A DNA stretch of 64,000 bases from Flavobacterium sp. Lineage in GTDB: Bacteria; Bacteroidota; Bacteroidia; Flavobacteriales; Flavobacteriaceae. The translations under genes and the position numbers were made by a program. Every line of letters starts with the position of its first letter. The stretch's first letter is position 1. The notes beneath the pieces are model-generated. The model saw only the letters and a program-made list of their open reading frames with translations. It was not told the origin of the DNA and searched no databases. The stretch is from NCBI RefSeq assembly GCF_035195345.1, contig NZ_CP136574.1, forward strand, positions 2,653,598-2,717,597, read 5' to 3'. This document shows positions 48,343-54,548 of this stretch, piece after piece.

Positions 48343-49317
48343 CTATTTCCCTTGCTTCGCTTTCTCCTTAGCTTGTTTTTTGAAATAGCCTCTAAACAAA
48401 AAATTGTGTTTTAAAGCTTCTAAATCTTCATTTAATTTTATACTAGCTTTGTTTACATTTGTAATAGTTGAGTCAATTTGTTGTACAAGTTTAGGATTGT
48501 TTGATAAATAATTTATAGCTCCTTTACCTTCTTTGATGTTGGTAATAGTAGCATTCAAATTGGTTACCACTTTATCAATTTCAGTACTCGATTTTTCCAA
48601 ATTGGTAATTATAGTTTTCATTTGTGATGCCACTTCTTTATCTTTTAAAACGCCAATTACATTGTCTTTTTGATTCAAATCAGCAATCATTTTATTTAAA
48701 TTAGCTACAGATGCAGTGGTTCCTTTTGTGGTTTCCTTTAAATAATTCATTGTAGCTTTTAAATCTTGCGCCATTAATGAATCTCGAAGAAGTACACCAA
48801 CGGTTCCGTTTCCTTTGTTGATTTCATGCGTTATTTTTAATAAGTCGGCAGTTAAAAGTGCTGCGTTTTTGTTGGTTACATCTAATGTTTTTAGCATTTC
48901 ATCAGTGCTAGATTTACTATAAGATTGAATAATATCGCCAGGAATAACAGCATTTTCATTTCCTTTTCCTGGAATAATATTAATAATCATATTACCTACT
49001 AATCCGTCAGAACCTATGGTGGCTATGGCATCTTTTTTAATGTGTATTAGCATTTTATCTTCAATGGCCATTGATACATTTATAGTTGTATCATTCACCA
49101 TTTCAATGCTCTTAACGGTTCCAATATCCATTCCGGCATATCTAACGTTATTTCCTACTTGTAAGCCGCTTACATTGCCAAAAACCGCTTTTAGGTTACT
49201 TGTATTACCAAATAAATTTTGCTTATTTCCCACAAAATAGATTGCTGCTAAAAAAAATAGCGAACCTATAATGATAAATAAACCCAATCGTATTTTTTGT
49301 CGATCTGTTTTTTCCAT
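48343..49317 (-). CDS. mlaD: MlaD/MCE family protein
   Basis: TM anchor; VSGLQVGNNVRYAG, IGSDGLVG; coiled-coil tail. Confidence 0.88.
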   Translation of the reverse strand: MEKTDRQKIRLGLFIIIGSLFFLAAIYFVGNKQNLFGNTSNLKAVFGNVSGLQVGNNVRYAGMDIGTVKSIEMVNDTTINVSMAIEDKMLIHIKKDAIATIGSDGLVGNMIINIIPGKGNENAVIPGDIIQSYSKSSTDEMLKTLDVTNKNAALLTADLLKITHEINKGNGTVGVLLRDSLMAQDLKATMNYLKETTKGTTASVANLNKMIADLNQKDNVIGVLKDKEVASQMKTIITNLEKSSTEIDKVVTNLNATITNIKEGKGAINYLSNNPKLVQQIDSTITNVNKASIKLNEDLEALKHNFLFRGYFKKQAKEKAKQGK

Positions 49318-49323
49318 ACTATT

Positions 49324-50079
49324 TTATTTAAAAAAGGCTTGCACTTTCGGATCGTTTGAAGCGTTTAATTCATCAAAAGTCCCTTCAATATAGTTAATTC
49401 CATCTATTAATAAAACCATTCGATTTGCGATTGCTTTGGCACAATCTACATCATGCGTAATGATAATAGAGGAAGTATTGTATTTTTCTTGAATGGATTG
49501 CATCAAAAGTATAATTTCTTTTGAAGTTATTGGGTCTAAACCTGTTGTAGGCTCGTCGTATAAAATTATTTTTGGTTTTAGTATTAAGGTTCTAGCTAAG
49601 GCAATTCTACGTTTCATACCGCCAGAAAGTTCATTTGGCATTAAGTCAATTGCGCTTGCTAAACCTACACTTTCTAATGCTTCCATAACTAACGGAGTGG
49701 TGTCATCAATTTTGCCAAATTTTTTGGTGTGTCTTCGTAATGGGAATTCTAAATTTTCTCGAACTGACATTGAATCATATAAGGCACTTCCTTGAAAAAG
49801 AAAGCCAATTTCGGTGCGAAGTTCGTCAATTTCCTCGCGTTCAAGCATATTAATCTCTTTGTTCATTACAAAAATAGAGCCACTATCGGGTGTTTCTAAT
49901 CCAATAACACATTTAATCATCACCGATTTTCCAGAACCTGATTTCCCCATTACTACCAAGTTTTCTCCTTCGTTTAAAACCATATGAAAGCCATTTAAAA
50001 CGGTGTTGGTTCCAAAAGTTTTATGCAAATCTTTTATTACTATTATGGGCTCTTTTTTTGTTTCCATATTACATGTCAT
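49324..50079 (-). CDS. mlaF: MlaF-type ABC ATPase
   Basis: GKSGSGKS, LSGGMKRR, YDEPTTGLDP. Confidence 0.88.
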   Translation of the reverse strand: MTCNMETKKEPIIVIKDLHKTFGTNTVLNGFHMVLNEGENLVVMGKSGSGKSVMIKCVIGLETPDSGSIFVMNKEINMLEREEIDELRTEIGFLFQGSALYDSMSVRENLEFPLRRHTKKFGKIDDTTPLVMEALESVGLASAIDLMPNELSGGMKRRIALARTLILKPKIILYDEPTTGLDPITSKEIILLMQSIQEKYNTSSIIITHDVDCAKAIANRMVLLIDGINYIEGTFDELNASNDPKVQAFFK

Positions 50080-50854
50080 AAAAAATGTTGGTTACAAAAA
50101 CGGCAATAAAATCAATTACAAATAGGAGCATAGAGGTATAAACAACTGCTTCATTGGCTGCTTTTCCAACGCCAGCCGTGCCTTTTTTACAATAATACCC
50201 TTTGTAGCAACCTATTAATCCAATGGCAAAACCAAAGAAAAATGTTTTTAAGGTTGCCGGAATAAGATCGCTAAATTCTAATATATTAAAAACTTGATTA
50301 AAGTAAAGTTGAAACGATACATTGTCTTTTACATTTTCCACTAAATAGGAACCATAGATAGCCAACACATCGCCAAAAATAACTAACAGCGGCAACATTA
50401 GACTAGTAGCTAGAATTCGGGTTATGACTAAATATTTAAACGGATTGGTGCCTGAAACTTCCATAGCATCTATTTGTTCGGTAACTTTCATAGAACCTAA
50501 TTCGGCTCCAATACCCGATCCAATTCTTCCCGCGCAAATTAAAGCGGTGATGATTGGACCAATTTCTCTAATTATAGAAACACTCACCATGGAAGCCATC
50601 CAAGAAACAGCTCCAAACTCTTGCAAGGTAGGTCGCGACTGTAACGTGAAAACCAATCCAATAATAAATCCCGTTACCCCAACTAAAAATAGTGAACGGT
50701 TACCAATATAATAGCATTGGCGTAAGAATTCTTTAAATTCGTAGGGTGGAAATAGAAATTCTCTAAAAAATCGACCTGCAAAATAAGATATTTCGCCAAT
50801 TTCTTTTAAGAAAGATTTTATCATTTCAATTATGTTTGCGAAATACTGTTTCAT
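50069..50854 (-). CDS. mlaE: MlaE-type ABC permease
   Basis: REIGPIITAL, GRIGSGIGAELGSMKVTEQIDAM, GTAGVGKAAN. Confidence 0.9.
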   Translation of the reverse strand: MKQYFANIIEMIKSFLKEIGEISYFAGRFFREFLFPPYEFKEFLRQCYYIGNRSLFLVGVTGFIIGLVFTLQSRPTLQEFGAVSWMASMVSVSIIREIGPIITALICAGRIGSGIGAELGSMKVTEQIDAMEVSGTNPFKYLVITRILATSLMLPLLVIFGDVLAIYGSYLVENVKDNVSFQLYFNQVFNILEFSDLIPATLKTFFFGFAIGLIGCYKGYYCKKGTAGVGKAANEAVVYTSMLLFVIDFIAVFVTNIFYDM

Positions 50855-50943
50855 AATTTTTTGATGATAATTTTTGTAAAGTACTTACCAAAGGTAGTGA
50901 TTTTTTATAACAAAATAAGGCTCTTTAACGCCTAACTTGTTAA

Positions 50944-50977
50944 AAAAAATCCGATTTGAATTCAAATCGGATTTTTT
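50944..50977. terminator. Intrinsic terminator downstream of the OmpA remnant
   Basis: AAAAAATCCGATTTG-aatt-CAAATCGGATTTTTT. Confidence 0.8.
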
Positions 50978-50982
50978 AATAT

Positions 50983-51090
50983 TTATTTTATGATATCTAT
51001 AATTATAGTTCTATTATAAAATCGTTCTTCAGGATATTTATTTTCAAAAGGTGCTACTTTTTCGTTTTCACCTTCACCATAGATTTTAAA
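50983..51090 (-). pseudogene. 3' remnant of an OmpA-family gene
   Basis: Minus strand reads FKIYGEGENEKVAPFENKYPEERFYNRTIIIDIIK*, an OmpA C-terminal G.GE...NR motif with no start codon. Confidence 0.7.
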
Positions 51091-51286
51091 TTGAAGGGTT
51101 CATTTCCTCATTAAAAGTAACCGTGATTACTTGATTAAGAGGTATGTTTGTAGCCGCTTTATCTGGATTTTTATCAATGATCATTGGGCACATCCCAGCA
51201 GTCTCTTGAAAATCATCTTCTGCGCAACAAATAATTAAAGTAGCTAAAACTATCGCAATAGTTACTAGAACGTTTTTTTGTTTCAT
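51086..51286 (-). pseudogene. 5' remnant of an Ig-like (Big_5/SbsA) lipoprotein gene, resembling Flavobacterium ice-binding protein N-termini
   Basis: Lipoprotein signal with C-AEDD, then CPMIIDKNPDKAATNIPLNQVITVTFNEEMNPS, truncated mid-domain. Confidence 0.7.
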
Positions 51287-51723
51287 TGTTTAAATATTTA
51301 TGAAACAAAGGTTAGTCAATTTTAGCCTTTAAATGTTATACTATTTAGGTTATTAATTACATAAATCAAGGATCTAATTGAAATTTAATGAGTTAATTTT
51401 TTAGAAATTTATACCGTTGAAACCATTATTTTTGTGCCATTTACTGCTTAATTATTTGAATGTACTGTTTTAAAAAATAAATTCTCTAGGGAAATTAATC
51501 AATTTCCCTAGAGAAATAAATAAATTTTTGTACAGAAAACATATAAATTCTCTAGAGAAATTGAAATAAAGATGCAGTTTTATAGTATATTTTTTACTAT
51601 AAAACTGAATCATTTTTGTAACCACACTAAAGGATTATTTTGAATTGTCTTGACCATAAAAAAATACATTTTTGTGTAAAACTATTTCATTACATGATAC
51701 TATTTTGTTTATGTAATTATAGC

Positions 51724-52959
51724 TTATTCAACAATAATTTTTTTATTTTCATTAAATGAATTCGACTTGAGGTTGATAATATAAACACCTTTTTTAAAAT
51801 GATTTACATCAATTTTTTGTCCATTTTGAATCGTGCCTTTTTGAACCGATTTTCCTATTAGATCAAAAATTTCGTATTCAGAATCTGAGTTATTGAAATG
51901 TACAGTCAACATGTCTTTAGTTGGATTAGGATGAATAGTAATTGAGTTTAAAAAATTTTCAGTATTTCCTAATATTCCAAAACGGGTTAATGCATAATCA
52001 TAATTGTCGGCTTCAATTTCTATAATTGTGTTTTGTGGTAAAGCTTGATTTACGAGTTGATTGGTAATTGTATTGTATCTATATAATCTTTGTTGGTTAT
52101 CTAAATCAATAGCAATAAAAACCAATGTTTCAGTTGCTTGATCATATGTTCTGTTGAAAACCTGAAGTCCTGTAACTTCTACTATATTTACTAAGTTAGA
52201 AACCTCTCCAGTTTCAGAATTTAATATACCTACATTTAAAGTAGAAGTACTGGTGTTTGAATTAAATTGTGGGTATATGATATAAATATTATTTTGTTCA
52301 TTACTGTATTCTAAGCCAATATTTCCAATGATATTTGGTCCAGACAAAGGGGTAACGTTATAAGAGAAGCCATTAGTTGTAATTGTCGATTTGACTAATT
52401 TTTTTACATTTTCATCTTGTGTAATAAAATAGAATATTTTGTTGTCTGAATCATAGCAACTTCCATCTGGAAATAGAATTCCTATATCATTACTATTATA
52501 ATAACCCAAATTTGTAGATAACTGTGTTGTTGGATTGTAACGATTTAAATAAACATTATTTTCTTGATCAGAATCATAAGAATAGAGAAAACCATTTTGC
52601 ATATCAACTTCTCCCGATCCATTATTAACACTAGTTACTTCGTTTAATGTAATAGTATTATTTTGAGTGTTATATTTTAGCAACTTACTAACGTAGTTAT
52701 TATTTTCATTTAGTAGAATCCTTGAATAGTACTCTCCATTATTAGAATTATATATTGAAGAGCCTCCCAAAACACCGACATAATCAACGGGAATTACATT
52801 TGTAAAATTTGTTTGACCAGCATTCCATTTGACAAGGTTATCAATAGTTTGACCATTAGAAGTAAAGCCAATTAATTTAATTACTTCTTGAGAATGCGAA
52901 CAATGTATTGAAATGATATGCAATAATCCAATAACTAATATATATATATACTTTTTCAT
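51724..52959 (-). CDS. T9SS type A sorting-domain protein, probable beta-propeller
   Basis: Signal peptide; repeated ~45-aa units; CTD IHPNPTKD...KGVYIINL...KKIIVE. Confidence 0.82.
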   Translation of the reverse strand: MKKYIYILVIGLLHIISIHCSHSQEVIKLIGFTSNGQTIDNLVKWNAGQTNFTNVIPVDYVGVLGGSSIYNSNNGEYYSRILLNENNNYVSKLLKYNTQNNTITLNEVTSVNNGSGEVDMQNGFLYSYDSDQENNVYLNRYNPTTQLSTNLGYYNSNDIGILFPDGSCYDSDNKIFYFITQDENVKKLVKSTITTNGFSYNVTPLSGPNIIGNIGLEYSNEQNNIYIIYPQFNSNTSTSTLNVGILNSETGEVSNLVNIVEVTGLQVFNRTYDQATETLVFIAIDLDNQQRLYRYNTITNQLVNQALPQNTIIEIEADNYDYALTRFGILGNTENFLNSITIHPNPTKDMLTVHFNNSDSEYEIFDLIGKSVQKGTIQNGQKIDVNHFKKGVYIINLKSNSFNENKKIIVE

Positions 52960-53159
52960 ACGTTAATTATTTATAATAGTTACAAATTTATTAATTTGTT
53001 TTATGTTATTTAATAAAAATTAAACAAATTTAACATAAATTAATTTTCATATCATTATTTACTTTATGCTTTGAGGAATATGATTAAATAAAAATCCGAC
53101 CTGCTTTCACAAATCGGATTTAATCTATATTTTAAAATCTATTTTCTTTGTTCTAAAGA

Positions 53160-54548
53160 CTACAAGTGAATCACTTCACCGTAAGCATCAGCTACAGCTT
53201 CCATCACCGCTTCACTCATGGTAGGGTGTGGGTGCACTGCTTTTAAGATTTCGTGTCCTGTAGTTTCTAATTTACGAGCTACAACAGCTTCTGCAATCAT
53301 ATCGGTAACGCCGGCACCAATCATGTGGCAACCTAACCATTCGCCGTATTTAGCATCAAAAATTACTTTTACAAATCCGTCAGGCGTTCCTGCTGCTTTT
53401 GCTTTTCCTGAAGCTGAGAATGGGAATTTACCTACTTTGATTTCGTATCCTTTTTCTTTCGCTTGTTTTTCAGTCATACCCACAGAAGCAATTTCTGGAG
53501 TTGCATACGTACAACCTGGAATGTTTCCGTAATCTAACGCTTCCACGTGTAAACCTGCAATTTTTTCCACACATAAAATACCTTCTGCAGAAGCAACGTG
53601 CGCTAAAGCTTGTCCTGGCGTTACATCACCAATAGCGTAGTAACCAGGAACGTTAGTTTGGTAATATGCGTTTACTAAGATTTTATCTCTATCGGTAGCA
53701 ATACCTGTTTCTTCTAATCCGATGTTTTCGATGTTGGTTTTAATTCCAACTGCTGATAATAAGATATCCGCTTCTAAAACTTCTTCTCCTTTAGCGGTTT
53801 TAACGAATGCTTTTACTCCGTTTCCAGAAGTATCAATTCGTTCCACAGAAGCGTTGGTCATGATAGAAACGCCTGCTTTTTTCATAGAGCGTTCCATTTG
53901 TTTTGAAATATCTTCGTCTTCTACAGGAACAATGTTTGGCATAAATTCTACAATCGTCACTTCTGTTCCCATTGCGTTATAAAAATGTGCAAACTCAACT
54001 CCAATCGCACCAGAACCTACAACAATCATTTTCTTTGGTTGCTCAGGTAACGTCATTGCTTGGCGGTATCCAATTACTTTTTTACCATCTTGTGGTAAGT
54101 TTGGCAATTCGCGAGAACGCGCTCCTGTTGCAATAATGATATGATCTGCAGTATATTCAGTTACTTTTCCGTCAGCAGCTGTTACATCTACTTTTTTACC
54201 TGGTTTTACTTTTCCAAAACCATCAATCACATCAATTTTATTTTTCTTCATTAAGAATTGAACACCTTTGCTCATTCCTTCTGCAACGTCTCTAGAACGT
54301 TTTACAACAGCGTTGAAGTCTTTATCAAATGCGGTAACAGTTAATCCATAATCGGAAGCATGTTTTAGGTAATCAAAAACTTGAGCCGATTTTAATAATG
54401 CTTTCGTTGGAATACAACCCCAATTTAAACAAATTCCACCCAAATTTTCTTTTTCAATAACGGCTACTTTAAAGCCTAATTGTGATGCTCTAATAGCAGT
54501 TACATAACCACCAGGACCACTTCCTAAAACTATGATATCGTATTTCAT
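53160..54548 (-). CDS. lpdA: Dihydrolipoyl dehydrogenase
   Basis: GSGPGGY, GGICLNWGCIPTK, GSGAIGVE, HPHPTMSE. Confidence 0.97.
   Translation of the reverse strand: MKYDIIVLGSGPGGYVTAIRASQLGFKVAVIEKENLGGICLNWGCIPTKALLKSAQVFDYLKHASDYGLTVTAFDKDFNAVVKRSRDVAEGMSKGVQFLMKKNKIDVIDGFGKVKPGKKVDVTAADGKVTEYTADHIIIATGARSRELPNLPQDGKKVIGYRQAMTLPEQPKKMIVVGSGAIGVEFAHFYNAMGTEVTIVEFMPNIVPVEDEDISKQMERSMKKAGVSIMTNASVERIDTSGNGVKAFVKTAKGEEVLEADILLSAVGIKTNIENIGLEETGIATDRDKILVNAYYQTNVPGYYAIGDVTPGQALAHVASAEGILCVEKIAGLHVEALDYGNIPGCTYATPEIASVGMTEKQAKEKGYEIKVGKFPFSASGKAKAAGTPDGFVKVIFDAKYGEWLGCHMIGAGVTDMIAEAVVARKLETTGHEILKAVHPHPTMSEAVMEAVADAYGEVIHL

Follow-up and report, generated by a model that had tools for sequence, protein, structure and literature searches.

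PMC9957290, citing Vance et al. (2018, FEBS J 285:1511), describes SfIBP_1 of Shewanella frigidimarina as an 'ice adhesin' in which a DUF3494 domain is tethered to the cell, and PL002-1792 of the Antarctic Flavobacterium sp. PL002 is a cold-induced, lipoprotein-type antifreeze-like protein which inhibits ice recrystallisation (PMC13413566). The locus described here lies in a window of 64,000 nucleotides, the whole stretch of Flavobacterium sp. DNA that was analysed; it is a remnant of a DUF3494 gene and not a member of the DUF3494 family (PF11999). The intact orthologues of related genomes share with SfIBP_1 a membrane anchor, tandem Ig-like spacers and a C-terminal DUF3494 beta-solenoid, but their spacers are Big_5 domains, their anchor is a Bacteroidota-type lipobox with acidic residues, and a dedicated beta-barrel/OmpA partner gene always follows the orthologue gene. 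Only the intact orthologues show this tethered-adhesin architecture, of which the window keeps the anchor and a third of spacer 1. The DUF3494 part of the orthologue matches SfIBP_1 (6bg8) with E 2.2e-13, and IBPv (5uyt), ColAFP (3wp9), EfcIBP (6eio) and FfIBP of Flavobacterium frigoris (4nuh) with E values from 1e-11 to 3e-19. The last four are single-domain proteins homologous to the C-terminal domain of the orthologue; in contrast to these assayed proteins, the carriers of the pair include mesophilic or psychrotolerant lake bacteria. Since the orthologue reaches 59.7 bits against the NCBIfam IBP_CFB equivalog, far below the cut-off of 400, it is not of the FfIBP type. PL002-1792 is by its description also a Flavobacterium surface lipoprotein with an ice-binding-type beta-solenoid, but it has 402 aa, and Big_5 and peptidoglycan are absent from the text of the paper (PMC13413566). 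From the sequence, we infer that the intact module may serve to bind ice or to adapt the cell to cold. A function unrelated to ice is also possible, since F. lacisediminis has retained both genes and its growth range is 10-35 C, with 20 C as the optimum (PMC11092233).

The scar itself is an ordinary but very clean pseudogene remnant, and a case of routine genome decay. It has in common with ordinary deletion pseudogenes the little or no microhomology, the premature stop, the secondary nonsense or frameshift mutations and the lack of a second copy, and differs from them in the tidy survival of both gene ends and of a working terminator beside an essential-looking operon.

Structure of the scar and its parent genes

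Table 1. Features of the scar and of its surroundings (positions are those of the window; the slash marks the junction).
Feature	Position	Strand	Description
lpdA (dihydrolipoyl dehydrogenase)	53160..54548	minus	conserved left-hand anchor in all strains and relatives
411-aa protein with type IX secretion C-terminal sorting domain	51724..52959	minus	Por_Secre_tail, E 2.8e-14
Leader of the 5' stub	51287..51312	minus	~26 nt 5' of the ATG homologous to relatives; variable slot beyond
5' stub ORF	51086..51286	minus	66 aa: MKQKNVLVTIAIVLATLIICCAEDDFQETAGMCPMIIDKNPDKAATNIPLNQVITVTFNEEMNPSI, then stop
Codons 1-65 of the 5' stub	51092..51286	minus	from the lipoprotein gene with three Big_5 and DUF3494
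Junction and new stop codon	51086..51091	minus	...CCCTTCA/ATTTAA
3' stub	50983..51090	minus	FKIYGEGENEKVAPFENKYPEERFYNRTIIIDIIK, then stop; reading frame shifted by one base
Intrinsic terminator hairpin	50944..50977	minus	15-bp stem AATCCGATTTGAA, U tract
mlaE upstream region	50855..50943	minus	homologous to the mlaE leader of relatives (alignment)
TAnnTTTG-type motif TACCTTTG	50889-50896	minus	within the mlaE upstream region
mlaE 50069-50854, mlaF 49324-50079, mlaD 48343-49317	48343..50854	minus	intact; Pfam and alignments

The 5' stub shows a signal peptide, a lipobox, an acidic CAEDD stretch and the beginning of Big_5 domain 1. The lipobox is LIICC in the window, LIIGC in other strains and LISGC in the relatives, the window showing a G>C change at position -1; the cysteine and the acidic residues (CAEDD) resemble what we take to be the surface-export signal of Bacteroidota lipoproteins. 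Big_5 (PF13205) matches stub residues 34-65 over profile positions 5-36 of 105 (Pfam, E 8.8e-5; 23.6 bits, exactly the gathering score), only the first third of the domain and not the half that had been proposed from the sequence; with this incomplete domain the stub does not belong to the family, while the intact orthologues contain three full copies. The 3' stub is what remains of the gene encoding the OMP beta-barrel/OmpA-domain partner, namely its final 35 codons and stop codon, with neither a start codon nor an upstream frame. Since its 35 residues alone show no Pfam match, and no membership of PF00691, DNA comparison with relatives was needed to identify it. Downstream, the TAnnTTTG-type motif is presumably a Bacteroidota -7 promoter element of the mlaE upstream region, and mlaEFD is the conserved right-hand anchor of the locus.

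The scar DNA was searched against 40 related genomes, and G022, which belongs to the same genus, matched in two collinear blocks (159087-159320 and 155474-155626) located 3.47 kb apart: the start of a gene encoding 586 aa and the end of the next gene (666 aa). The 5' stub shows 88% nucleotide identity with G022 (E 2e-77) and 83% amino-acid identity with residues 1-69 of the Flavobacterium lacisediminis protein, and the 3' stub with the hairpin shows 80% identity with G022 (E 7e-32); the 3' stub by itself shows 81% nucleotide identity with the terminal 108 nt of the partner gene in G022, F. lacisediminis and G156. The intact 586-aa lipoprotein contains three Big_5 domains and then a C-terminal Ice_binding/DUF3494 domain (PF11999, E 5.8e-48), and further intact orthologues match PF11999 with E 1e-47 to 1e-57 (Pfam). 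The intact partner protein has 666-680 aa in the relatives and an OmpA domain (Pfam) at approximately residues 583-643 or 590-656, the 3' stub being its last 35 residues, and distant partner orthologues also show an N-terminal outer-membrane beta-barrel domain (OMP_b-brl_2). In three relatives, G022, F. lacisediminis TH16-21 (L020) and G156, the two genes are adjacent, and the intact pair is between lpdA and mlaEFD.

The sequence-only reading had described this region as a lipoprotein 5' stub fused to an OmpA 3' stub, with an ice-binding-type (DUF3494) lipoprotein as the 5' parent. Both points hold: the two halves are collinear with the intact pair of G022, and PF11999 is present in the intact orthologues. 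The limits that it gave for the scar (50983-51286) are exactly the stop codon of the 3' stub and the start codon of the 5' stub. It had also proposed that a whole intervening operon was removed with both ends left behind; the ends are indeed left, at the same locus as in the relatives, but this operon consists of two genes only.

Compared with G022 and F. lacisediminis (L020 4522-7993), the window lacks ~3,472 bp: the gap opens at codon 66 of the lipoprotein gene and closes 108 nt short of the partner gene's end. Both flanks are thus present and collinear with the intact orthologous locus while the middle is missing, the frame is destroyed, and there is no intact paralogue in the genome. In the junction context, GAAATGAACCCTTCA/ATTTAAAATCTATGGTGAAGG, the sequence on the left follows the lipoprotein gene to codon 65 plus one base, and that on the right corresponds to the final 108 nt of the partner gene. 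Since the fusion is out of frame, ATT TAA stops the ORF one codon past the junction. Alignments to both parents from three relatives show that base 51091 (A) could be supplied by either parent gene. The microhomology is at most this 1 nt, a figure that stays an upper limit since identity at the junction is no more than ~88% even with the nearest intact relative; with no more than one base shared at the break, illegitimate recombination is indicated and not a repeat-mediated event. No IS element, MITE or longer repeat was found at the junction. The 5-mer GAACC, considered as a driver, is upstream of both breakpoints but at unequal distances (6 and 8-9 nt), and was rejected.

The profile search with PF11999 gave no match in the 5' stub or in the whole genome, which is 99.98% complete; the same search is positive in 43 of the 151 genomes of the genus. 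The window's genome also lacks the partner gene, and when the full lipoprotein is compared with this genome the stub is the only match. With no other DUF3494 gene in the genome, the whole surface module appears to have been lost.

We give a probability of about 0.93 to the reading in which the locus is a non-functional deletion scar of the lipoprotein/OmpA pair, older than the diversification of the sampled strains and drifting neutrally, with a history such as the following. The ancestor would have had the order lpdA, variable slot, lipoprotein gene with three Big_5 domains and DUF3494, beta-barrel/OmpA gene, AraC gene and mlaEFD. One illegitimate recombination (at most 1 nt of microhomology) would have removed the ~3,472 bp and joined the ends out of frame, and a second loss of ~0.8 kb would have taken the AraC gene, perhaps by recombination between two similar terminator hairpins. 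What remains would be a promoter-proximal leader, a 66-codon ORF unable to fold and a 3' fragment with no frame, together with a terminator which probably still insulates mlaEFD, and the whole surface module would be gone from the genome with any ice- or surface-binding trait. The scar would then be a clean and dated example of trait loss, in which the only DUF3494 gene of the genome has been removed in one river/lake Flavobacterium lineage. The sister species in similar waters keep the pair, which would offer a natural comparison for ice-binding-like lipoproteins in non-polar bacteria.

The region between the pair and mlaE

A gene encoding a 187-aa AraC-family protein separates the partner gene from mlaE in G022, F. 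lacisediminis and G156, and G022 has in addition an HMA/MauE membrane protein gene in this place. The window has neither the AraC gene nor the HMA/MauE gene at this site, and its genome contains AraC paralogues only elsewhere, with 53-59% identity. When MlaE, MlaF and MlaD are compared together, the window falls with G022 and F. lacisediminis (81% identity), and G156 with F. psychrotolerans. Since the AraC gene is found in relatives on both sides of the window by MlaEFD similarity, it was most likely present in the ancestor of the window and lost later, as judged by parsimony over a similarity pattern of six taxa and by a hairpin type which is common in these genomes.

The hairpin of the window is strong (-17 kcal/mol, z = -5.9; none of 200 shuffles folded as well). 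Its stem, AATCCGATTTGAA, matches the mlaE-proximal terminator of F. lacisediminis and G022, which lies between their AraC gene and mlaE, and is unlike the terminator of the OmpA-type gene of these two relatives (AATCCGTTTTG...). The terminator had been described as intact: a strong hairpin is present, but it looks like the one preceding mlaE in the relatives and not like that of the OmpA gene itself. This match to the mlaE-proximal terminator suggests that the ~0.8-kb loss of the AraC gene ran from just past the partner-gene stop codon to the second hairpin. The terminator-like hairpin type AAAAATCCGATTTGAA..TTCAAATCGGATTTTT, of which the hairpin at 50944-50977 is an example, recurs at many sites of the genome, including G000:C1:1200639-1200695, and genus-wide.

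The 3.47-kb deletion and the absence of the AraC gene could alternatively be one complex event, or the AraC gene could never have been here and have been inserted in the relatives. Parsimony is the single argument for a separate loss, and with such a common hairpin type the likeness to the mlaE-proximal terminator may be a coincidence. Against these possibilities, the AraC gene is at the same position in three genomes which flank the window in MlaEFD similarity, and the two missing segments are separated by the 108-nt 3' stub and its stop codon, so that two separate breaks are required in any case. A single event or an AraC gene that was never present is therefore unlikely, although it is the alternative that keeps the most weight among those considered here, and a separate loss of the AraC gene is preferred.

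Age and decay of the scar

The window sequence is that of GCA_030545275.1, contig JAULAM010000017.1, which is MAG5 from a freshwater sample of the Han River taken on 21 December 2020 (PMC10720407); the sample was enriched at 25 C and sequenced with PacBio HiFi (PMC10720407). Contigs of the same species were found through their identical MlaE protein in NCBI, JGI, ENA and Logan assemblies. All six conspecific assemblies that reach the site show the stub at the same offset with an identical junction, and in a protein collection the 66-aa product forms a cluster of 12 variants on ~44 contigs, all 12 ending in ...NPSI followed by the stop codon. The halves being collinear in G022 and the junction being the same in six independent assemblies, the scar is neither a chance arrangement nor an assembly error. 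The strains which share it differ at up to 6% of mlaE third positions, so the deletion predates their divergence. The loss had been called recent; this is right relative to the split from the F. lacisediminis lineage, but the scar is common to all sampled conspecific strains and is further decayed in some of them.

Strain L012 shows an additional GAA>TAA nonsense mutation at codon 23 of the stub, and strain L017 a 1-nt deletion that causes a frameshift in the stub, with the upstream region replaced to ~28 nt from the ATG. The 12 variants of the 65-codon stub vary at 13 amino-acid positions; for comparison, one exact MlaE sequence of 261 aa is indexed in 167 blocks of the collection. Over 303 nt of stub sequence polarised with G156, the window lineage shows 20 substitutions (11 at codon positions 1+2) and the G022 lineage 10 (three at these positions), small counts which are suggestive only and too few for significance.

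The loss could be polymorphic or very recent, with intact alleles in the species or in its immediate sister and the scar as only one haplotype. In favour of this, L107 (OCVT010020052.1, 2,079 bp) has the species-typical 5' sequence (GMCPMIID...) and runs on through a DUF3494 gene that is intact into the first part of the partner gene. However, after the first ~100 nt L107 turns sharply to ~99% identity with G022, and the switch is inside a stretch of ~50 nt that is identical in both lineages, as in a short-read chimera or a recombinant of the G022 species; moreover, none of the six long conspecific contigs or of the 12 stub variants lacks the scar. L107 is most likely such a chimeric assembly or recombinant, and a polymorphic or very recent loss is improbable. 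If L107 were real, the intact state would survive very near the species of the window. A metagenome scan with a species-specific 29-mer found two short contigs only, L107 and L108. In L108 (ERZ1034363 contig, 1,224 bp, coverage 0.75) the scar has diverged further but its junction is the same, and past the terminator there is a convergent ORF of 151 aa followed by a short membrane ORF in place of mlaE; by eye, these two resemble a tetrapyrrole-methylase/RsmI-type methyltransferase and NADH dehydrogenase subunit A. This contig could come from a sister lineage whose neighbourhood has been rearranged, or else be a misassembly at low coverage.

Another possibility is that the 66-codon ORF still functions and encodes a small surface lipoprotein or lipopeptide, as it retains a start codon, a signal peptide, the cysteine and ~26 nt of leader, and 11 of the 12 stub variants have the full length of 66 codons. 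Opposed to this are the stop at codon 23 in L012, the frameshift in L017 and the replacement of its upstream region to within ~28 nt of the ATG, the G>C change at -1 of the window lipobox, the many amino-acid polymorphisms among the variants, and the Big_5 remnant, whose 32 of 105 positions are too few for a beta-sandwich; retention as a working gene is accordingly very improbable. An assembly artefact or a binning chimera in the MAG, whose contigs were re-assembled by hand (PMC10720407), has next to no likelihood as the source of the scar, given the HiFi reads, the single contig of 2.75 Mb and the identical junction in independent NCBI, JGI, ENA and Logan assemblies.

The DUF3494/OmpA pair in Flavobacteriales and the variable slot

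The partner gene is present in 24 of the 151 genomes of the genus, and in all 24 it is on the same strand, 30-150 bp downstream of a PF11999 gene. In a sample of 301 genomes of the order, 10 further genomes contain the partner with the same adjacency in every case; among them are members of four more genera of this family and of one genus in a different family. In total, 34 genomes from six genera contain the partner, and in every one of the 34 it comes immediately after a DUF3494 gene, in agreement with the clustering of the two stub parents that the sequence-only reading had described. The pair also shows a relation to mla genes: in G056 (L100 2205-8494) and G132 (L101 440-6787) it is directly after co-directional mlaE-mlaF-mlaD, and in six or more other genomes a second type of mlaE (~60% identical to that of the window) lies within ~10 kb of it. 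A full-text literature search for DUF3494 together with OmpA (and with Flavobacterium) found no paper.

Since the partner is always after the DUF3494 gene, and the pair is often by mlaEFD, the arrangement points to a two-protein anchoring system. The partner, whose OmpA domain is of the peptidoglycan-binding kind, would be a good candidate for linking the outer membrane with the cell wall at the anchor of the stalk. The lost module may then be one copy of a surface apparatus of Flavobacteriales that seems to be undescribed. Two strictly coupled proteins would make it up, a Big_5-stalked, lipid-anchored DUF3494 protein and a dedicated beta-barrel/OmpA protein which ties it through the outer membrane to the cell wall, and its genes are repeatedly in or beside an MlaEFD-type operon; for this proposal the odds seem even. 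If it is true, the species with the scar would be a natural knock-out for ice adhesion, other surface adhesion or envelope protection. The pairing rule is a more useful by-product of the analysis than the scar.

On the other side of the scar, the slot between lpdA and the stub (window 51287-53160) is a hotspot of gene turnover, as seen in a comparison of loci L012-L017, L011, L019 and L020. The slot genes differ in every conspecific strain and include type IX secretion cargo, a lipase/thioredoxin protein and small hypothetical proteins, and the contents also differ among three related species. In the window, the 411-aa protein is strain-specific cargo of this slot and is outside the lost module. 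In L017 and G022, homology ends ~26-28 nt upstream of the ATG of the stub. Downstream of the type IX cargo gene, at ~51480-51570 of the minus strand, there are three 12-nt palindromes, TTCTCTAGAGAA, TTCTCTAGGGAA and TTCCCTAGAGAA; two of the three form a terminator-like hairpin of 15 bp (51515-51482), and they could be operators or terminators. Between the window and G022, third-codon divergence is 18% in lpdA versus 47% in mlaE, at 3 kb from each other, a difference that could be due to a strong codon bias of lpdA or to a recombination tract ending near the variable slot.
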